A stretch of DNA of 18,018 nt from a virus. Shown here one piece after another: positions 4,794-17,698 of the stretch. Location: UHGV virus genome UHGV-1603728, one strand, 5' to 3'. Each line of letters opens with the position of its first letter. Positions within the stretch are counted from its first letter, which is position 1. Under the pieces are notes generated by a model. The model made no database searches. It was not told the origin of the DNA and worked only from the letters and a program-made list of their open reading frames with translations. The position numbers and the translations under genes were made by a program.

Positions 4794-4807
4794 TGTCGAG
4801 GCGTCCT

Positions 4808-4840
4808 TATACATTTATATAAATATATAATTCTATATAC
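4808..4840. promoter_or_regulatory. AT-rich iteron cluster S1 (TATAGATTT / TATATAA-type units) upstream of the wHTH gene
   Basis: tatacatttatataaatatataattctatatac matches the iteron family that flanks parA/parG. A 7-bp hairpin follows at 4841-4858. Confidence 0.4.
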
Positions 4841-5944: not shown

Positions 5945-6046
5945 TCTCCGGTTTAACCAGGGCGGGTATCGCTCGGTTTCGGGTATAACCTTAGGAAATT
6001 TTTTCCCACCTGTAAAGCGCTTTTTATATAAATCTATAATTATATA
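5945..6046 (-). repeat. Copy A of a 101/102-bp promoter-leader repeat (about 97% identical to 16048-16148)
   Basis: Near-identical to copy B, with 2 substitutions and 1 indel. Contains a TTTACA -35-like box, a conserved roughly 50-nt leader, and GGAG before the ATG. Confidence 0.75.
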
Positions 6047-6056
6047 TTTATAGATT
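6021..6056. promoter_or_regulatory. Iteron palindrome S2 (AAATCTATAATTA-N-TATTTATAGATTT) upstream of the -35 box
   Basis: Inverted 10-bp arms AAATCTATAA / TTATAGATTT. Same units as the iterons around parA/parG. Confidence 0.5.
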
Positions 6057-6107
6057 TTCGATATTCCCGATGTCTATACACCATCAAAACAGCTCAAAAT
6101 GACACTT

Positions 6108-6485
6108 TTACTCTCTTCGCTTTTTCAAATAGTCGACAACATACGCCCTGGCTTTTGCCAACTTCCGGCGATACTGTCTGAGACTAAGAGAAAGGGCGTG
6201 GGCTTTATCAATATGCGGTGCATTTATGTCGAGGCCCCGAATCTCCCACGCCCCGTATTCAATTCGGACAACCAGCGCCGCAGTCTCATCAACTACCGTG
6301 AGGGCCGTCACCGCTCCCTCGATACTGGTTTCCAGTGAGTCATTTGGTGCGCCGCCCCCTCCGGTAAACTGGCAACGCGTAACCATCATCATTTCTAACA
6401 TCGACGCGAAACCGCTACGGGCGTTGCAGCCATTGCGCACCCACAGCGCCCATAGCTCAAACAAGCTATCCAGATCGCGTCTCAC
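6108..6485 (-). CDS. Antitermination protein Q (Q82/QuuD-like small Q family)
   Basis: 125-aa protein whose N-terminus (MRRDLDSLFELWALWVRNG) follows the pattern of the small Q antiterminator family. GTG start with SD GGGAG. Last gene of the early operon. Confidence 0.6.
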   Translation of the reverse strand: MRRDLDSLFELWALWVRNGCNARSGFASMLEMMMVTRCQFTGGGGAPNDSLETSIEGAVTALTVVDETAALVVRIEYGAWEIRGLDINAPHIDKAHALSLSLRQYRRKLAKARAYVVDYLKKRRE

Positions 6486-8477: not shown

Positions 8478-8513
8478 ACCACGATATGTGGTATTAAAAC
8501 CACATATCGTGAG
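8478..8513. promoter_or_regulatory. Operators O1 (ACCACgatatGTGGT) and O2 (ACCACatatcGTGag), forming a 13-bp-arm inverted repeat
   Basis: 8479-8491 and 8500-8512 are reverse complements at 12 of 13 positions. They overlap the putative leftward promoter (-35 TTGAAA at 8521..8516, -10 TTTAAT at 8498..8493). Confidence 0.5.
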
Positions 8514-8632: not shown

Positions 8633-9289
8633 ATGAAAAGCAACGACGAGAACATCAAGAAAGAAATAGGTCTGCGCATTCAGACTCTACGGAAACAATC
8701 CGGCATGACTGCCGGAGATCTCCAGCAAGTCACTGGAATAGGCTTAAGCACCTTGCAGAACTATGAGGCCGGATTAAGACAACCATCTATACCTGCCATC
8801 AAGAAAATCGCGCACGCCCTGAAAGCATCAGCGCCTTATATCGCGTGCTTAACAGATAACCCGTTCCCACCCCAGAATACTAACGCTCCTGTTATTCCTG
8901 GGCTTGTAGCTATAAAAAATGACATAGCATCGCACGCCGGAGAAAAGCCAGTGCTGGCGATAGAACAGGAGATTCTACGAAGCAAGAACATCAACCCATC
9001 GTCTCTGTCAGTTCTCCAGAGCAACGATGAGTTAATGTCACCAACAATATCCCCAGGCTCCCAAGTCCTGATTAATACAGACGATACAGAGATTCATGAG
9101 GGGATCTATGCCCTTGAAGACAGAAATGGCCTGGTTGTTTTGAGGCACTGTAGAGTCATACCGGGTGACAATGCTGTTATGCTGTCAACCGAAAGGGATG
9201 CTGAAATGAACACTAAGCATCTGAATAACGAGGAATTTAAGCGTTATAAAGTTCTGGGCCGCGTAGTTAGTGTTGTCAACTGGTTATGA
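8633..9289 (+). CDS. CI-like repressor: N-terminal XRE HTH plus C-terminal S24 (LexA-like) peptidase-fold domain
   Basis: HTH segment LRKQSGMTAGDLQQVTGIGLSTLQNYEAG. The C-terminus (ELMSPT ... NGLVVLRHCRV ... GRVVSVVNWL) parallels the LexA/CI C-terminal domain. Confidence 0.7.
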   Translation: MKSNDENIKKEIGLRIQTLRKQSGMTAGDLQQVTGIGLSTLQNYEAGLRQPSIPAIKKIAHALKASAPYIACLTDNPFPPQNTNAPVIPGLVAIKNDIASHAGEKPVLAIEQEILRSKNINPSSLSVLQSNDELMSPTISPGSQVLINTDDTEIHEGIYALEDRNGLVVLRHCRVIPGDNAVMLSTERDAEMNTKHLNNEEFKRYKVLGRVVSVVNWL

Positions 9290-9756: not shown

Positions 9757-9782
9757 CTGCAAGCGGGCTAACGCCCGCTTAT

Positions 9783-9882
9783 ATGATTATAGATTTATAT
9801 AATTATATAAAACGCTTTTCATCAGCCAAAAAGTTGGTTATGCTTACCTCGTTCTATAAATATAGATTTATAGAATTATATA
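9783..9882. promoter_or_regulatory. Iteron clusters S3 and S4 upstream of parA (centromere/operator-like)
   Basis: ttatagatttatataattatataa (9787-9810) and ctataaatatagatttatagaattatataa (9854-9882), made of TATAGATTT and TATATAA units in both orientations. Confidence 0.5.
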
Positions 9883-9906
9883 ACCAAACACATGGAGTCT
9901 CGACAA

Positions 9907-10560
9907 ATGACTATCTCTGTAGGTATTTTCAACGGAAAAGGCGGCGTAACCAAATCAACAATTGCCCGTGCTTTAGCAGTTGCTTATGCAAAGGCCGGCT
10001 GGAATGTATGCCTGATCGATATGGATGTGCTTAACGGAACGGTAACGCGTTGGGTACAACGCAGAATGGCCAACAATATCGAACCTGCAATCGCGGCGCA
10101 GCCGTGCGGCACACCATCACAAGTCCAGAAAATCATCGAATCAGAAGTATACGACCTGGTTATCGTCGATGGCGGTGCCTACGCATCTGAATCAGTACCG
10201 AAGCTCTCTGAATTTCTGGATATGGTTATTTTGCCAACCAGATTCTCTACCGATGACCTGGAAACCACCGTTAACACAGCTCATGGCATCGTTAAAAAGG
10301 GTGTGCCAATCAAGAAAATTTGCATGGTGTTCTCAGGCGCGGCTGAAAACGAAGCCGACTACATTGAAGCCCAAGAGTACCTGGCTAATACGCCATACTT
10401 TGTTGTCGATAAGTACATTCCCCACAAGCCAGCTCTGAGCAAAGCTCAGGATAAGGGCTTAAGCCTCATTGAGTGCTCATACGTTGCGCCACGCAAAAAG
10501 GCAGACGACGTTATTCAGGGGATTATCAACCAGCTTGAGGCTCTGACTACTGCCGCGTAA
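9907..10560 (+). CDS. ParA/ParF-family partition ATPase (small ParA with deviant Walker A)
   Basis: Deviant Walker A KGGVTKST near the N-terminus, about 218 aa, no N-terminal HTH. SD GGAG upstream of ATG 9907. Confidence 0.8.
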   Translation: MTISVGIFNGKGGVTKSTIARALAVAYAKAGWNVCLIDMDVLNGTVTRWVQRRMANNIEPAIAAQPCGTPSQVQKIIESEVYDLVIVDGGAYASESVPKLSEFLDMVILPTRFSTDDLETTVNTAHGIVKKGVPIKKICMVFSGAAENEADYIEAQEYLANTPYFVVDKYIPHKPALSKAQDKGLSLIECSYVAPRKKADDVIQGIINQLEALTTAA

Positions 10561-10591
10561 TATATAATTATAGTTTTATAGATTTATATAA
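10559..10591. promoter_or_regulatory. Iteron cluster S5 between parA and the ParG-like gene
   Basis: tatataattatagttttatagatttatataa, the same unit family as S2-S4. Confidence 0.45.
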
Positions 10592-10603
10592 GAGGGGATA
10601 CAC

Positions 10604-10852
10604 ATGGCCGCACCATCAAAACCACCAAAGAAGAACAGCAAAGGCGTACCGCCATCGATCGAACAACCGCAGGTTTTCGACCCGACTGAAACGCCAACCA
10701 GAACCAAATCAGGTGGGGCACAAATGGCGTTTAACGTCGACCCTGAATTTAAACGTGAGTACAAAACATTCGCCAGCTCAATGGATATGTCATTGAAAGA
10801 AGTGCTGACAAAATCTTTTGAGTTACTCAAGGCTCAATACAACCAGAAGTAA
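10604..10852 (+). CDS. ParG-like ribbon-helix-helix centromere-binding protein
   Basis: 82 aa, directly downstream of the ParA-like gene. The C-terminus AFNVDPEFKREYKTFASSMDMSLKEVLTKSFELLK follows the RHH pattern of ParG (VNFDEEKHTRFKAACARKGTSITDVVNQLV). SD AGAGGGG upstream. Confidence 0.6.
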   Translation: MAAPSKPPKKNSKGVPPSIEQPQVFDPTETPTRTKSGGAQMAFNVDPEFKREYKTFASSMDMSLKEVLTKSFELLKAQYNQK

Positions 10853-11074: not shown

Positions 11075-11098
11075 AAAAAAAGGCCCCCGAAGGGGCCT
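11075..11098 (-). terminator. Intrinsic terminator (7-bp GC stem, CGAA loop), effective mainly on the minus strand
   Basis: AGGCCCC-cgaa-GGGGCCU with a run of 7 T on the minus strand, directly downstream of the small hydrophobic ORF. Confidence 0.6.
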
Positions 11099-11103
11099 AA
11101 TCG

Positions 11104-11226
11104 CTACTTGCTGCTAATGTTTATCGTCACATTCAGAGCGTTATCAGTAATCTTCCAACCCTCCCCATGTGGCGTAAACAAAGCTCCAGTAACAACGATA
11201 AAAATACACATGTAGTATTTTTTCAT
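11104..11226 (-). CDS. Small hydrophobic peptide (40 aa), candidate type I toxin
   Basis: MKKYYMCIFIVVTGALFTPHGEGWKITDNALNVTINISSK has one N-terminal hydrophobic helix. It is followed by a terminator and preceded by a long 5' leader containing a 20-nt box complementary to a divergent RNA. Confidence 0.35.
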   Translation of the reverse strand: MKKYYMCIFIVVTGALFTPHGEGWKITDNALNVTINISSK

Positions 11227-11290
11227 TGTGTGGCCCTTACAGGCCGTTTCACGGCATCCCCACCGACGAAAATGTCGCGAGAGCAAGCAC

Positions 11291-11310
11291 GCTGTTTGTG
11301 CCTGCGTGGT
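11291..11310. repeat. 20-nt box copy 1 (GCTGTTTGTGCCTGCGTGGT), in the putative leader of the small-peptide mRNA
   Basis: Identical at 19 of 20 positions to 11541-11560. Confidence 0.6.
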
Positions 11311-11498
11311 ACGGCAAGTGGATAATCCTTTCCTGAAAGTCAGTGCCCGGGTGCGAATCGGCGGAAAGGCCCCAAGCCATATTACACGTCATACCCTTCA
11401 TAATGAAGGAATAAAAAACGCTTTTATTACATAAGATTACACGTAAATAAGTTAAAAACCTTCATTTTGCATGAGCTAATGAGCTAAATTTTTTTATA

Positions 11499-12350: not shown

Positions 12351-12513
12351 TTAGTCTGTTAAAATCCCTCTGTATTGACATGAATGCGCCATTGGTGGAC
12401 ACTTTCCGAGCCGTAGCAAAATCTACGGTCGGGATTAGCCTCCTGAATAACACGATGGCGCATACCGCGTTAGCGGTTTTTTTTATGCGTAGAGCACTGT
12501 TACGCCCAAATTA

Positions 12514-12592
12514 TGGTGGGTCGTACAGGGGCGGAGAAATCCGCGCCGGTTCGTCATTGTGTCCGGTAAGGCTAACCCTGTACGGCTCACCA
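12514..12592 (+). ncRNA. Structured RNA element resembling phage P1 c4 antisense RNA
   Basis: 17-bp closing stem (12514-12530 with 12576-12592) enclosing a GAAA-tetraloop hairpin (12531-12544) and a hairpin with a 13-nt loop (12546-12566). Loop sequences are complementary to flanking target boxes and to the start codon of the downstream small ORF. Confidence 0.4.
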
Positions 12593-12646
12593 CCATTTGA
12601 TTAGCCTCGAATGGCGGTGATAGTTCCATATACTGGAGATATCACA

Positions 12647-12838
12647 ATGACAAACCTACCCCATGACTATTACGTCAACCTCGTAAAGATCCTTCTCAAG
12701 AAAGCCTCATACGCCGATAAATTCCGCCTGGCTGAAATCATCGAGCGCGAAGCTATGCGCATCGCCAGCAACGATAACGCTGTTTCTGACGCAAAAATCT
12801 CCCTCGTAACCAAAGTAGTTATGGGAGGTGCAAAATGA
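12647..12838 (+). CDS. Small protein translationally coupled to the antirepressor (icd-like position)
   Basis: ATG 12647 with SD GGAG 8 nt upstream; its stop overlaps the antirepressor ATG (ATGA). An alternative ATG at 12611 has no SD. Confidence 0.45.
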   Translation: MTNLPHDYYVNLVKILLKKASYADKFRLAEIIEREAMRIASNDNAVSDAKISLVTKVVMGGAK

Positions 12839-14016
12839 AAACGCTTCCGACCGTTAACACCCTACAGCCTATCCTGCATAACCAAATCCCCGTTATCACT
12901 ACTGAACTACTGGCAAAGCTATACGGCACAGACGTTGATAACATCAAAAAAAATTACTCACGTAACGCAAACCGCTTTATTGAAGGAAAGCATTTTTTCA
13001 AAGTGGCTGGCGATGAGTTAAAAACTTTGCGAGTGACTTTAAGTCACTCACAAAATTTGCGACTGGTTTTAAACGAGTCACAAAATGAGGTGCAAATTTC
13101 CCCCAAAACTCGCTCTCTCATCCTCTGGACAGAACGCGGGGCTGCACGTCACGCCAAAATGCTTGAAACTAACCAAGCGTGGGATGTGTTCGAACGGCTG
13201 GAAGACTGCTACTTCAACCAGAACGCGCAAACGGCCGCGACCGTTACCGTCTCGCCAAACAATGCTCGTGAGGTTGTCGATACGCTCAACGCCAAACCGA
13301 TGTTTTACATTAAAGTGTGCAACAACGAGCCACTCACAACCTCAGCCGATGTTGCCCAGGCATTCAGCACCACAAACAATTCCATCGTTATGGCCATCGA
13401 TGCGCTACGCATTCCTCGCACGGCTGCGGCGCGTCACTTCTTTAAAGAGCAACGACCGCTGGAAGGAAGCGACCGCGAAATAACAATCTATCGCATGACA
13501 AAAGACGGATTTACCTTACTCATGGAGAGCATCGACGGTCCAAGCGTGAAAGATATCAAGCTGGCCTACATTGAAGCCTTTAACGCTATCAGCAGCGTGT
13601 TAAAAACACAGTACGAGCGTGATCTGGCTAAACGACTGTACCAGGAAAAAACGATTATCCGCGCGGCAACAGAGCATAATCGGCTATTAACGGAACCGAA
13701 CTACAGGAAGGAACTAATCAAGGAGTTTGACAAGGCAACAGGGAAAACCAAAGCGGCGCTAAATCTGCCAGCAATGACTCAGGAAAATGTGATATCAGCC
13801 TTACTTCTTGATCTGCTCAGAAACGCCAGAGCACTGATCAGCTTTGACGAAAACCTGAATCCTCAGCTCAAGCTACTACCACCGACAGGCAAAGTAGTCG
13901 ACCAGGCAGATCACAACAGCATACTCAGCGTACTGGATGCAAACCTACCAGCCAGGACACTACAGGAACTGATAAAGATATCGGCGGATAAACTGGCCGC
14001 AGGTGCAAAACCATAA
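12835..14016 (+). CDS. Phage antirepressor (ORF6N/KilA-type N-terminal region with Rha-like central domain)
   Basis: N-terminus PVITTELLAKLYGTDVDNIKKNYSRNANRFIEGKHFF is ORF6N-like; the centre PLTTSADVAQAFSTTNNSIVMAIDAL is Rha/Ant-like. 393 aa, SD GGAGG 6 nt upstream. Confidence 0.75.
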   Translation: MKTLPTVNTLQPILHNQIPVITTELLAKLYGTDVDNIKKNYSRNANRFIEGKHFFKVAGDELKTLRVTLSHSQNLRLVLNESQNEVQISPKTRSLILWTERGAARHAKMLETNQAWDVFERLEDCYFNQNAQTAATVTVSPNNAREVVDTLNAKPMFYIKVCNNEPLTTSADVAQAFSTTNNSIVMAIDALRIPRTAAARHFFKEQRPLEGSDREITIYRMTKDGFTLLMESIDGPSVKDIKLAYIEAFNAISSVLKTQYERDLAKRLYQEKTIIRAATEHNRLLTEPNYRKELIKEFDKATGKTKAALNLPAMTQENVISALLLDLLRNARALISFDENLNPQLKLLPPTGKVVDQADHNSILSVLDANLPARTLQELIKISADKLAAGAKP

Positions 14017-14051
14017 AACAAAGCGCCCGATTTGGGCGCTTCTTCAATTCT
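14011..14051. terminator. Bidirectional terminator between convergent genes
   Basis: 7-bp stem AGCGCCC / GGGCGCU (14021-14039) with T-rich flanks on both strands. Confidence 0.55.
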
Positions 14052-14686
14052 TAATATTTCGGTGTAATCAGTAGCGACACGTGCCCTGATTTGTCACGAG
14101 AAACGTAATACTCGCCTCTCTTAGTCTTAAACTCAGCTTTCTGCGTATCAGATTTAACAATCTGCTCTAACTGCGCGATCACTGTGTCTCTATCACTTGA
14201 TGCATCCAAGACTTCAACAGCTACGGCCATAGAAAGCAAGGAATCAGAGCTAGGCTTAGATACTCGCCATAATAACTCTGAAATCTTCCCATCCTTATCA
14301 ACTCTAGCTCGACCGTTAACAGATGAATTGATGGCAAATTCAACGGTGTTGTTACCTTGTTTAACTGACTTAATTCTTATAGTGGAGGTGGATTTTCCTG
14401 ATGTAGCGATACCTTCAAGGTCATCATTATATAGCTGCTTAAACTGATCTACGGTCACGCCATCGAAAGCAGCTCCGGTAGTAGCCGTAGTGCCGGAGTC
14501 TTCTGGAATCAAGGCCACAGCAGCAAGAGTATTAACAACAACAAAAGTAGCAATCCCAAGAAACCCACTCACTAAAACAGCTTTGAACTTACTACCAGAA
14601 GATGGGCCACATTGTTTCCGATATGCACCACGAACTACGAAGAAACACAAAATCAGGCTAATAATAAACGCCACCAGCATCCCCAT
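14051..14686 (-). CDS. Membrane-anchored protein with an extracytoplasmic domain (211 aa)
   Basis: Two N-terminal hydrophobic segments (LVAFIISLILCFFVV, LVSGFLGIATFVVVNTLAAVALI) then a Ser/Thr-rich soluble domain. SD AGGAG 8 nt upstream. Confidence 0.55.
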   Translation of the reverse strand: MGMLVAFIISLILCFFVVRGAYRKQCGPSSGSKFKAVLVSGFLGIATFVVVNTLAAVALIPEDSGTTATTGAAFDGVTVDQFKQLYNDDLEGIATSGKSTSTIRIKSVKQGNNTVEFAINSSVNGRARVDKDGKISELLWRVSKPSSDSLLSMAVAVEVLDASSDRDTVIAQLEQIVKSDTQKAEFKTKRGEYYVSRDKSGHVSLLITPKY

Positions 14687-14748
14687 AGAAATCTCCTTTT
14701 AGATATAAGGGTAAAGCAATATCGTATTGGATCTTCCTTTAGACACAA

Positions 14749-14762
14749 CCCCCCCTCCCCCC
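14749..14762. repeat. Homopolymeric tract C7-T-C6 (G-tract on the minus strand) upstream of the membrane-protein gene
   Basis: ccccccctcccccc at 14749-14762, about 63 bp upstream of the gene start at 14686. Confidence 0.8.
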
Positions 14763-15250
14763 ATACAGGGTGCCCTTTACCGGAGTTCCGGCCCCTTCTC
14801 AAAAGCATCAAAAAAAGCTCGAGATCGAGTACCGGAACTCATGCCACCAGATAGCTCCACATCGTTTCCAATGCTTCGCCGCCGTGTGCGCCCTGTGGCC
14901 CACAATCATGCCATTGGTCGTCTGATATACCTTCTTCTGCTCATTGAGCACAGGCGAGTTGTCGCACTCCTGCCTTTCTCAGACTCGACTTAGTTTAGAT
15001 CGCTGTTCCTGGCTTGCGTCAGCACACTTTCCCCTTGTACGCATACCCGCGCGCCACTTCGCCCAAAAACACCGAACCCAACGAAGTGGCAAAGACAACG
15101 ACGCGAGCGTGAGTCTGAAACAGGCACCAGTAAAAAAGGGGTTGCAGGCGCAAAAAGATTTGATTATCTTTAGACGCAAGAAAGCCGCCCCAATCAAGAG
15201 GTGTCTTTTTAAATCCAGCCTACCAAGCAAGATTTAAATTTCGGATTGAA

Positions 15251-15280
15251 AACCGCCCGGCAAGGCGGTTTTTGTCTTTC
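15251..15280 (+). terminator. Rho-independent terminator (plus-strand orientation; may also serve the minus-strand HTH gene)
   Basis: 7-bp stem AACCGCC / GGCGGUU with loop CGGCAA, then TTTTTGTCTTTC. Confidence 0.55.
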
Positions 15281-15321
15281 TGGCGCTTACATTACACCAC
15301 CATAAAACGATCCGTAAAGGA

Positions 15322-15594
15322 TCATTTGATCCCTTGTTCCAATTCTGACGACACTTTAACCTTTTCCCATACAAGGGTTTGCAGCCTTAACAGAATCGCA
15401 TCTTTATCAAGGTGTGAAAGATCCTTAACCATATCGTCAAACGACAGAACGCGAATGGCCATCTCAATGACCCTCGGCGGCTCCCCCTTCTCATATCGCT
15501 TATATGTAGCCAACGATATCCCAAATTCTTCGGCGGCTCGCTCCTGCGTCCAGTTCATCCCTCGACGCCATAATTTCAATTCATAACCCGTCAT
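15322..15594 (-). CDS. XRE-family HTH protein (90 aa)
   Basis: Start trimmed to MTGYELKLWRRGMNWTQERAAEEFGISLATYKRYEKG (ATG 15594) with SD GAGGAGG upstream. Confidence 0.6.
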   Translation of the reverse strand: MTGYELKLWRRGMNWTQERAAEEFGISLATYKRYEKGEPPRVIEMAIRVLSFDDMVKDLSHLDKDAILLRLQTLVWEKVKVSSELEQGIK

Positions 15595-15622
15595 AGCATC
15601 CTCCTCGCACAATATTAACACT

Positions 15623-15649
15623 CGCAAAGTGTCAAAATGACACTTTGCG
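15623..15649. promoter_or_regulatory. 27-bp perfect palindrome CGCAAAGTGTCA-AAA-TGACACTTTGCG (operator-like)
   Basis: 12-bp perfect inverted arms; contains TTGACA on the minus strand. Lies between the 126-aa gene and the HTH gene. Confidence 0.55.
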
Positions 15650-15659
15650 CACATCGTGT

Positions 15660-16040
15660 TTACTTAACGAGGAATAAAAATGGTTTATTGTTCGGCGGTG
15701 TAATCGGGGCTGGCTCGCTTTTGCTCATGCGATCAGTGTACCAGGCCAGCTCCTTGTCAAAGTAAGCCTGATTAAAATAGGCAATGAATGTAGTTTCAAA
15801 TCCATAACGACCGCTAATACGCAGCATCTGGTTGCCGTTCTCTGTTTCCAGATATACCTGGGCACGTTCCTGATTCTCCTTCAGCCAGGTTAAAGCCTCA
15901 TCGCACGAGGACACACGATACTCATCATCGTAGCCGTCATCGATGCGGCTTGAAGAAGAACGGCAAATCACGCCAACAGAACCAGCCAGGATAGTTTGAA
16001 TTTTAAGGAAAGCGTTTTTGCGGATTTTAATCATGCTCAT
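15660..16040 (-). CDS. Hypothetical protein (126 aa)
   Basis: ORF directly downstream of copy B of the promoter/leader repeat, with SD GGAG upstream. Confidence 0.5.
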   Translation of the reverse strand: MSMIKIRKNAFLKIQTILAGSVGVICRSSSSRIDDGYDDEYRVSSCDEALTWLKENQERAQVYLETENGNQMLRISGRYGFETTFIAYFNQAYFDKELAWYTDRMSKSEPAPITPPNNKPFLFLVK

Positions 16041-16047
16041 CGGGTTA

Positions 16048-16148
16048 TCTCCGGTTTAACCAGGGCGGGTATCGCTCGGTTTCGGGTATAACCATAGGAA
16101 ATTTTTTCCCACCTGTAAAGCACTTTTATATAAATCTATAATTATATA
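16048..16148 (-). repeat. Copy B of the 101/102-bp promoter-leader repeat, ending in a half iteron (S6)
   Basis: About 97% identical to 5945-6046. It carries only the left half of the S2 palindrome. Confidence 0.75.
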
Positions 16149-16161
16149 ATTCAATGAGAAC

Positions 16162-16187
16162 AAAAAAGCCCCTTTGCAACAGGGGCT
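16162..16187 (-). terminator. Rho-independent terminator after the HigA-like gene
   Basis: 7-bp stem AGCCCCU / AGGGGCU with loop of 7 nt, followed on the minus strand by a run of 5-6 T. Confidence 0.6.
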
Positions 16188-16202
16188 TATCATTCGTTTT
16201 GA

Positions 16203-17380: not shown

Positions 17381-17668
17381 TCAAACATCTGTTTTGTTAT
17401 CAATGAAGATTAACCCTAACCCAGCGAAGTAACACAGCAGCGCCCAGGCTGCATACGGAATGCTGGATCTGGATGTGGACTCCTTTAACATCTGCCAGTT
17501 GCGAACATTGCGACTATCTTTTAAGCCTAGTTTTTTGGCCAACTGCGAGCCACTCATTCCGGTCAGGCCAATGACTGCCCGAACTTCTCCACATGTAGGA
17601 GATTCCCATTCATCCGCTTTTTTTAAACAAGCCGGATTCAACATTTTTAAAACAGTATCTTTATCCAT
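17381..17668 (-). CDS. HTH protein with a C-terminal transmembrane segment
   Basis: HTH-like segment TGMSGSQLAKKLGLKDSRNVRNWQ and hydrophobic C-terminus IPYAAWALLCYFAGLGLIFI. SD GGAG upstream of ATG 17668. Confidence 0.4.
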   Translation of the reverse strand: MDKDTVLKMLNPACLKKADEWESPTCGEVRAVIGLTGMSGSQLAKKLGLKDSRNVRNWQMLKESTSRSSIPYAAWALLCYFAGLGLIFIDNKTDV

Positions 17669-17698
17669 AACCATCTCCATTTATTATATCTACGATGG

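Follow-up and report, generated by a model that had tools for sequence, protein, structure and literature searches.

A conserved palindrome as the probable autoregulatory operator of a small XRE-family gene in enterobacterial phage-plasmids

Here we describe a 27-bp perfect palindrome that separates two small genes, one encoding a 126-residue protein and the other an XRE-family helix–turn–helix (HTH) protein, in an 18,018-nt stretch of viral DNA (hereafter referred to as the window). Comparison with related elements suggests that the palindrome is most likely the site at which the HTH regulator shuts off its own promoter. The two genes are probably adjacent but separately promoted units, with the HTH gene under negative autoregulation through this dyad operator. 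Negative autoregulation is supported because the dyad is conserved and covaries, abuts an extended −10 element and travels with the HTH gene. All of the sequence features listed in an earlier note on this DNA were recovered at the same coordinates, and the autoregulatory operator that it proposed for the downstream HTH protein is favoured on the same three grounds. An autoregulated XRE repressor is a well-known, ordinary arrangement, and the biological gain is modest: another autoregulated HTH protein, an orphan protein family and an insertion hot spot.

The phage-plasmid and its two genes

The window is part of a circular phage-plasmid of about 48 kb. It is 98–99% identical to a family of circular elements of that size that have been deposited both as plasmids (from E. 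coli, including ATCC 25922, E. albertii and K. aerogenes) and as phage genomes (Yersinia phages vB_YpM_39, vB_YpM_41 and vB_YpM_44). Members combine myovirus genes (tail, head and terminase) with an IncFII-type repA and parA; with phage and plasmid genes on one element and deposits of both kinds, the family is therefore one of phage-plasmids, with hosts in E. coli, Yersinia, Salmonella and Klebsiella. The order of the backbone is HigB, HigA, 126-aa gene, HTH gene, conserved non-coding block, variable gene and Rha, and the ORF6N/Rha antirepressor-type gene is preceded by a C4 antisense RNA and isrK. The HigB(Gp49)/HigA pair directly upstream of the 126-aa gene is bona fide by Pfam. The pSLy3 group is part of the SSU5 supergroup. 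A literature search returned nothing on the 126-aa and HTH genes. The features discussed here are as follows (basis in brackets).

6094..6108, plus strand: second copy of a 15-mer shared with the palindrome, with one perfect half-site (TGACACTTT) and a 5/9 partner (exact match)
15247..15274, no strand assigned: G+C-rich hairpin 3' of the HTH gene (terminator scan, plus strand)
15322..15594, minus strand: gene for the 90-aa XRE-family HTH protein (HTH_3 match, phrog_6962)
15600..15606, minus strand: Shine–Dalgarno sequence GAGGAGG of the HTH gene (read from the sequence)
15612..15620, minus strand: extended −10 element TGtTAATAT, with TG at 15620-15619 and the hexamer TAATAT at 15617-15612 (read from the sequence and alignments)
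15623..15649, no strand assigned: 27-bp perfect palindrome, proposed operator of the HTH protein (conservation, related dyads elsewhere)
15660..16040, minus strand: 126-aa open reading frame, orphan family phrog_8090 (homologues, AF2 model)
16048..16157, minus strand: promoter/5'-UTR cassette (repeat copy B) for the 126-aa gene (repeat comparison, promoter scan)
Parts of copy B, minus strand: TATA-rich 8-bp repeats at 16157-16118, TTTACA at 16119-16114 and TATGGT at 16096-16091
16166..16188, minus strand: terminator-like hairpin after the higA-like gene, splitting HigB/HigA from the 126-aa unit (terminator scan)

The pair of genes that had been described, with its 65-bp gap, is present, and its context is corrected in that each gene is encoded on the minus strand. 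We also revise where the HTH gene begins. Its true start is the ATG at 15594, behind GAGGAGG; the 110-aa version from 15654 returned by the ORF finder was rejected, its start falling inside the palindrome. In the Salmonella lineage an in-frame TAA just 5' of the ATG closes this extension.

The HTH protein matches Pfam HTH_3 (PF01381) over residues 6–40 (29.8 bits against a cut-off of 23, E 6e-7) and HTH_31 (27.6 bits, cut-off 27), and consists of an HTH_3 domain (residues 1–55) followed by a long C-terminal helical extension. In its AF2 model (pLDDT 85), helices span residues 3–12, 17–24, 28–36, 41–60 and 64–88, consistent with a five-helix XRE (Cro/C1-type) topology plus a long C-terminal helix that could serve in dimerization. 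Weak similarity to RstR, MqsA and HipB scores below the family cut-offs, with E-values of 0.06–0.2 for the HTH domains of HipB and MqsA. Membership of the MqsA family was considered and rejected: the alignment is confined to the HTH part, cysteines are absent from the 90-aa protein, and the MqsA profiles fall short of their cut-offs (PF15731, 16.5 bits versus 30; TIGR03830, 25.4 versus 61.8). The hairpin at 15247..15274 is kept in all lineages; it was scored as a plus-strand terminator and is followed by only four U on the minus strand, and its role for the HTH transcript is putative.

The 126-aa protein has no match in Pfam, NCBIfam, PADLOC, PDB or BFVD. Its close relatives are confined to this plasmid family, and a profile search of 1.8 billion representatives returned only 36 clusters. 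These share the core IRKNAxKKI...GII..S...DDSxD...WL..NY.A...GxYxFxDxFxAYFD, followed by a variable linker and a short hydrophobic C-terminal motif (LFLV in the lineage of the window, VVSLCAYR in others). Structure prediction, which the earlier note had suggested, yielded an AF2 model (pLDDT 82.5) of a beta-alpha-beta-beta / alpha-beta-beta-beta / alpha sandwich with a disordered tail, and a fold search with this model gave no significant match. The protein has a conserved alpha/beta core and a disordered linker. The orphan family, with its IRKNAxKKI...DDSxD...WL core, is typical of the plasmid side of phage-plasmids of about 45 kb.

The palindrome and the promoter of the HTH gene

The palindrome, CGCAAAGTGTCA-AAA-TGACACTTTGCG, has perfect 12-bp arms and occupies part of the 65-bp gap between the two genes (15595-15659). 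Of 100 first-order Markov simulations of the window, one gave perfect arms of at least 12 bp; the window itself contains only one other such palindrome (8480-8511). The TTGACA inside it, also described previously, is read on the minus strand (15635-15630).

We aligned the intergenic region of lineages whose 126-aa and HTH proteins are 64–76% identical to those of the window. The position of the palindrome is conserved in six or more lineages. All keep the 9-bp dyad core, AAAGTRTCA-N3-TGAYACTTT, and the outer 3–4 bp of the arms vary symmetrically, in compensating pairs (CGC/GCG, TGG/CCA and CTC/GAG). The recognition helix of the HTH protein, SLATYKRYE, is identical across the lineages with the common core half-site, and the half-site differs where this helix is SMRTYIRYE or SLRSYKRYE. 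AAAGTG-N-CA-N3-TG-N-CACTTT is a likely operator consensus for a small enterobacterial XRE subfamily.

In the phage-plasmid lineages an extended −10 element, TGnTAAnAT, lies at a fixed distance of 2 nt downstream of the 13-bp arm, and TGaTAAATT takes this place in the viral contig L075; the sequence between the extended −10 element and the ribosome-binding site diverges across lineages. The two-hexamer promoter scan that we used is blind to elements of this kind. A sigma-70 promoter built on the TTGACA of the dyad was rejected in its favour. This TTGACA makes no usable −35 because only 12 bp separate it from the conserved TAATAT hexamer, and its sole partner at 15 bp, TATTGT, is a weak hexamer that is not conserved.

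We propose that the HTH gene is transcribed from its own extended −10 promoter (TGtTAATAT, 15620-15612). If transcription starts near 15605, as predicted, the dyad would extend from about −18 to −44. An XRE-type HTH dimer would bind it with one half-site, AAAGTGTCA, per monomer and would thereby occlude RNA polymerase, holding its own synthesis at a set level; the bound dimer may also roadblock read-through transcripts from the 126-aa gene. We infer from comparative evidence that the protein binds DNA, in which direction it regulates, where transcription starts and that a roadblock may form, and likewise the regulon membership of the 126-aa gene considered below. Among the points against autoregulation, the predicted start site gives the lineage of the window a leader of only about 11 nt, and an RNA or DNA hairpin under selection predicts symmetric compensating changes equally well. 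A scan of the complete plasmid returned one full site only, as expected for a purely autoregulatory operator, and no half-sites near the promoter of the 126-aa gene. Because a single-site regulator that controls only itself lacks an obvious purpose, a further target or partner of the HTH protein is probably missing from this picture.

The dyad occurs in other genomes in company with the HTH gene. L075 lacks the 126-aa gene, yet its HTH homologue (E 4e-41) is preceded by the dyad and TGATAAAT; the gene upstream of it is divergent and unrelated. On the Providencia chromosome L080, AAAAGTGACA-TAT-TGGCACTTTT lies at most 35 bp from the start of a 55-aa HTH homologue that sits between pyrD-like and pepN-like genes. 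In Serratia (L077, L079 and L111), TATAAT is directly followed by (A/G)TGACAAA(A)TGGCAT upstream of an HTH homologue. More remote homologues, which are internal to operons and lack a separate promoter, show no dyad. Against this pattern, no recognizable dyad was found at one Providencia homologue, L081. The dyad accompanies the HTH gene and not the 126-aa gene; palindrome, promoter and HTH gene therefore form a self-contained cassette. Matches to the palindrome core in unrelated viral contigs were set aside as a mixture of terminators and repeat arrays, and the open reading frames reached through such matches included close HTH homologues in members of the family only.

These distributions bear on the other role that the earlier note had offered, an intercistronic RNA hairpin. 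In the form considered here, the palindrome would act mainly as a hairpin in a bicistronic 126-aa/HTH transcript, be it a 3' stabilizer for the first cistron, an RNase III site or a weak attenuator that tunes how much of each protein is made. The perfect 12-bp stem falls in an 86-nt stretch that folds at −26.5 kcal/mol (z = −3), its pairing is kept by compensating changes, and the terminator scan found no terminator between the two genes. Non-Watson–Crick positions are wobble-compatible six times on the sense strand versus three times on the antisense strand, although this 6:3 ratio is not significant and three variants place A.C or C.A mismatches on the sense strand. However, the dyad is kept where there is no co-directional upstream gene (L075, L080 and L077/L079). 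The stem is followed not by a U-tract but by AGUGUUAAUAUUG on the sense strand, and as an intrinsic terminator it is absent from the scan. The conserved TGnTAAnAT beside the dyad is explained by a promoter and not by a hairpin. We consider a mainly RNA-level role unlikely, and it is not needed to account for the dyad, which may nonetheless have a secondary role in read-through transcripts. Co-transcription of the 126-aa and HTH genes is likely because no terminator separates them, and some functional coupling is possible.

Separate units and the shared 15-mer

The 126-aa gene (16040..15660) has its own promoter/5'-UTR cassette, of which a second copy precedes a DUF3560 gene. The cassette of the 126-aa gene (copy B) continues after TATGGT into a conserved leader and Shine–Dalgarno sequence, and shares 98% identity with the DUF3560 cassette (copy A, 5945-6063). 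Both copies are present in the Salmonella lineage with the same lineage-specific differences, which indicates concerted evolution or shared constraint. The cassette is preceded by arrays of TATA-rich 8-bp repeats, and arrays of these repeats also flank the parA operon; the 126-aa gene is therefore probably one of a set of genes co-regulated across the plasmid.

The description of the two genes as a module is weak and overall not supported. Conserved adjacency, at 64–100% identity, is limited to a single syntenic plasmid backbone; the genes have separate promoters, and members of either family are found in the absence of the other. Genes like the 126-aa gene lack this HTH neighbour in L009 and L018–L025, HTH homologues lack the 126-aa gene in L075, L077, L079 and L080, and the co-occurrence expected of an obligate pair was thus not seen in comparative genomics. 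Distant 126-like genes cluster, in variable order, with genes for a 101-aa HTH-like protein and a 76-aa protein, the latter sometimes fused to the 126-like domain. The 101-aa protein has no significant similarity to the HTH protein studied here. A homologue of the 101-aa protein is encoded in the window at 17381..17680 (minus strand).

A toxin-first toxin–antitoxin pair of the higBA/mqsRA kind, with the 126-aa protein as a novel toxin and the HTH protein as the antitoxin that binds DNA, would fit two small neighbouring plasmid genes that lie beside a bona fide HigB(Gp49)/HigA pair and stay adjacent at 64–100% identity. It would also fit the weak similarity of the HTH protein to the HTH domains of the MqsA and HipB antitoxins. 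The operator, however, lies between the genes, where it can control the HTH gene only, and the 126-aa gene has a separate promoter cassette that it has in common with an unrelated gene; nor are the two families bound to each other. The 126-aa protein resembles no toxin in sequence or fold. Natural insertions point the same way. An IS110 element in L007 interrupts the HTH gene behind codon 32 and leaves the 126-aa gene intact. In two further lineages insertions separate the HTH gene from the promoter or ribosome-binding site that serves it, and here too the 126-aa gene is intact: in vB_YpM_41 a 318-bp miniature element lies between the ribosome-binding site and the ATG (vB_YpM_44 gives a match with the same extra length), and in another lineage a cassette of about 570 bp, with a 141-aa open reading frame on the opposite strand, sits right after the −10 element. 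Because of these insertions, the position of the operator and the absent toxin similarity, we regard a toxin–antitoxin pair as quite improbable. What looks like such a pair on a widespread E. coli phage-plasmid, including that of ATCC 25922, is more likely two independent units.

The palindrome shares a 15-mer, TCAAAATGACACTTT, with a second place in the window, an exact recurrence that had been noted before. There are exactly two copies, at 6094-6108 and 15632-15646, both on the plus strand. The first lies just 3' of the open reading frame 6108..6485 (minus strand), with a one-base overlap with its stop codon, and about 38 bp upstream of repeat copy A. The label 'Q' given to this frame could not be confirmed: it matches no Q-family profile, Pfam family or PDB sequence, and its score with NCBIfam PA0613_fam is sub-threshold (21 bits versus 100).

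The recurrence had been read as a trace of recombination that shuffled the two promoter cassettes. It might mark a recombination joint of that kind, or a functional second site for the HTH protein at the junction of the 'Q' frame and the DUF3560 gene, about 80 bp upstream of the copy-A promoter. The exact 15-nt match comprises one perfect half-site and the spacer and reaches three bases into the other arm, and in 2% of shuffles a match of this length linked the 719-bp module to another part of the window. Window-wide, by contrast, an exact direct 15-mer repeat occurred in 13% of dinucleotide shuffles, and the departure from chance is only borderline. As a full site the copy at 6094-6108 has four mismatches, with a partner half-site that agrees at 5 of 9 positions, and AAAGTGTC arises from coding sequence too, where the HTH gene encodes K-V-S. 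In the Salmonella plasmid L008 the site is missing from the surroundings of the homologous frame, and this lineage still has both cassette copies. The placement is also unequal: one 15-mer is upstream of copy A, and the other is downstream of both copy B and the 126-aa gene. Because only a half-site is present, the Salmonella lineage lacks it while keeping the cassettes and the placement is unequal, the match is probably due to chance or a relic; a second operator or a recombination joint here seems extremely improbable.

The conserved downstream block and comparison with known systems

The most promising by-product of this analysis is a highly conserved candidate structured RNA beside the HTH gene. 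Directly 3' of the gene lies a block of about 590 bp (window ~14735-15321, minus strand) that is unannotated in 62 of the 62 plasmids carrying it. Its nucleotide identity between lineages is 86–89%, versus about 72% for the 126-aa/HTH region. Compensating substitutions occur in two hairpins, one of them capped by GAAA (GCATTG-GAAA-CGATGT, GTGCTG-GAAA-CGGCGC and GTACTG-GAAA-CGGTAC), and C-rich and G-rich stretches suggest a long-range closing helix (window 15145-14745, minus strand). The consensus fold of the minus strand is predicted at −154 kcal/mol versus −102 for the opposite strand, with eight versus three covarying pairs, and by our own reading of the alignments the small open reading frames in the block accumulate non-synonymous changes. 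An Rfam search of the block matched no family. Among 26 distinct sequences retrieved with an exact 28-nt motif, a retrieval that is blind to HTH genes lacking the block, it follows the HTH gene wherever the upstream sequence sufficed; a 186-nt covariance model found no copy in the distant phage-plasmid loci examined.

By sequence, about 400 nt of this block are a candidate large structured RNA or leader. In place of the 126-aa/HTH pair, the functional unit may then comprise the operator, the HTH gene, this structured RNA and the variable membrane-protein gene beyond it, whose product here has 211 aa, a wider grouping that we put forward tentatively and think rather doubtful. If true, it would amount to a new large non-coding RNA, or to a structured leader through which a variable cargo gene of the exclusion or defence type is controlled, the HTH protein being its regulator.

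Known toxin–antitoxin systems such as HigBA, MqsRA and HicAB share with the genes described here the gene order (a small protein, then an HTH protein) and the plasmid location. Unlike in those systems, the operator is not upstream of the pair, the promoters are separate and co-occurrence is not obligatory. A closer likeness is to autoregulated XRE/Cro-C1-type repressors (HipB, the C-terminal domain of MqsA and phage Cro-like proteins): the HTH protein is likewise a small HTH_3 protein, and its gene likewise has a dyad-symmetric site overlapping its own promoter. MqsA differs in carrying a zinc-binding N-terminal CxxC domain, which the HTH protein lacks, and no partner toxin was identified for the HTH protein. 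HipB binds TATCC-N8-GGATA and MqsA binds ACCT-N2-4-AGGT; the proposed operator, AAAGTGTCA-N3-TGACACTTT, differs from both. The compact unit of palindrome, promoter, HTH gene and hairpin, found in differing genomic contexts, also resembles phage morons and accessory cassettes that carry their own promoter and terminator, and the junction of the 126-aa and HTH genes is, in moron-like fashion, an insertion hot spot. Unlike morons, however, the HTH cassette is a fixed part of the backbone within the phage-plasmid family, where it always precedes the highly conserved non-coding block.

A conserved non-coding block downstream of the HTH gene

The region directly downstream of the HTH gene contains a conserved, unannotated block, followed by a gene that varies between lineages:

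Window 14735-15321, minus strand: conserved block, with a closed structure at about 15145-14745
Window 14051-14686, minus strand: gene after the block, 211 amino acids
L003 4355-4999, L004 1231-2025 and L006 1480-2136: counterpart genes after the block in compared lineages

Nucleotide identity between lineages is 86-89% within the block, compared with about 72% in the adjoining region of the 126-aa and HTH genes. In the lineage alignment, two hairpins display compensating substitutions, one of them capped by a GAAA loop, and C-rich and G-rich segments would form a long-range closing helix. The minus strand folds better than the opposite strand, and sequences fetched using the block's own motif also carry it after the HTH gene. 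A search of the block against Rfam returned no matching family. The block is a candidate for a large structured RNA, which would be new, or for a leader.

The gene that comes next, encoding a variable membrane protein, differs in length between lineages (211, 214, 264 and 218 amino acids), and a hydrophobic N terminus is common to three of the four products. A family search with this gene found no match. Plasmid NZ_CP098182, elsewhere 99% identical, appears to be devoid of the 211-aa gene. The gene may be exchangeable cargo, for example for exclusion or defence.

Insertions at the 5' end of the HTH gene and core dyads elsewhere

Three insertions were located at the start of the HTH gene in related loci:

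L001 (Yersinia phage vB_YpM_41) 14699-15016: miniature inverted-repeat element of 318 bp, between the Shine-Dalgarno sequence and the HTH-gene ATG
L088, about 918-1480: cassette of about 570 bp with a 141-aa ORF on the opposite strand, directly 3' of the -10 element
L007 3453-4878: IS110-family element, interrupting the HTH gene past codon 32

The 318-bp element is bounded by terminal repeats of about 38 bp (GGGGTTCCGTGGGCATTTCTGCGATAA...CGCTAAG) and flanked by a 5-bp target duplication, ATAGC; vB_YpM_44 yields a match with the same extra length. Its GGGG...TAAG ends and 5-bp duplication are similar to those of Tn3-family elements, as in the TIME type. The cassette (also present in loci L065, L090, L011 and L016) and the IS110-family element entered this junction independently, as two additional events. 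The HTH gene looks like an insertion hot spot at its 5' end.

The core of the dyad, AAAGTGTCA-N3-TGACACTTT, is also found in unrelated phage contigs (L072, L026, L074, L063, L032/L050, L044/L058/L060, L070 and L073). Some of these copies are plain terminators. Others are accompanied by extra half-sites in tandem (for example, repeated AGAAAATGACACTTT) or occur four times per approximately 14 kb, a pattern that points to use of a similar half-site by other DNA-binding proteins. None of the ORFs adjoining core copies in the unrelated viral contigs encodes a close homologue of the HTH protein.

Gene neighbourhoods and TATA-rich arrays

Distant 126-like genes (loci L018-L025) are grouped with genes for proteins of 101 aa (HTH-like), 76 aa and 113 aa. 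No Pfam family was matched by any of these three. The 76-aa protein is fused to a 126-like domain in proteins P0018 and P0023. Two ORFs of the window are listed here:

Window 17381-17680, minus strand: homologue of the 101-aa HTH-like protein
Window 6108-6485, minus strand: ORF termed Q in the earlier note

For Q, a putative antiterminator by its name, no Pfam family and no PDB sequence match was obtained; its sole family match, to PA0613, was sub-threshold.

TATA-rich arrays of an 8-bp unit (TTATATAA / TTATAGAT) recur across the window:

4799-4838
6024-6063
9779-9810
9844-9891
10560-10599
16118-16157

Three genes have such arrays upstream, namely the DUF3560 gene, the 126-aa gene and a gene for a 100-aa product, and parA (9892-10560) is flanked by them on either side. 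The arrays may be sites for a single plasmid-wide regulator or centromere-binding protein; the 82-aa ORF at 10604-10852, for example, may encode the protein that binds them. Promoter cassettes A and B, upstream of the DUF3560 and 126-aa genes, respectively, appear to have undergone concerted evolution.

Candidate immunity region and Rfam RNAs

One further palindrome was identified, together with three RNAs whose Rfam matches exceed the gathering score:

Window 8480-8511: perfect palindrome, 13-bp arms, 6-nt spacer
Window 12410-12483, plus strand: isrK
Window 12509-12597, plus strand: C4 antisense RNA
Window 11076-11374, minus strand: ryfA-like RNA

The palindrome, the sole other perfect one of at least 12 bp within the window, probably serves as the main immunity operator. 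It separates a divergent operon from a cI/LexA-like repressor gene (8633-9289), whose product matches HTH_3 and, below threshold, Peptidase_S24. The C4 antisense RNA lies immediately 5' of the ORF6N/Rha antirepressor-type gene (12835-14016), a layout resembling that of immI in phage P1.
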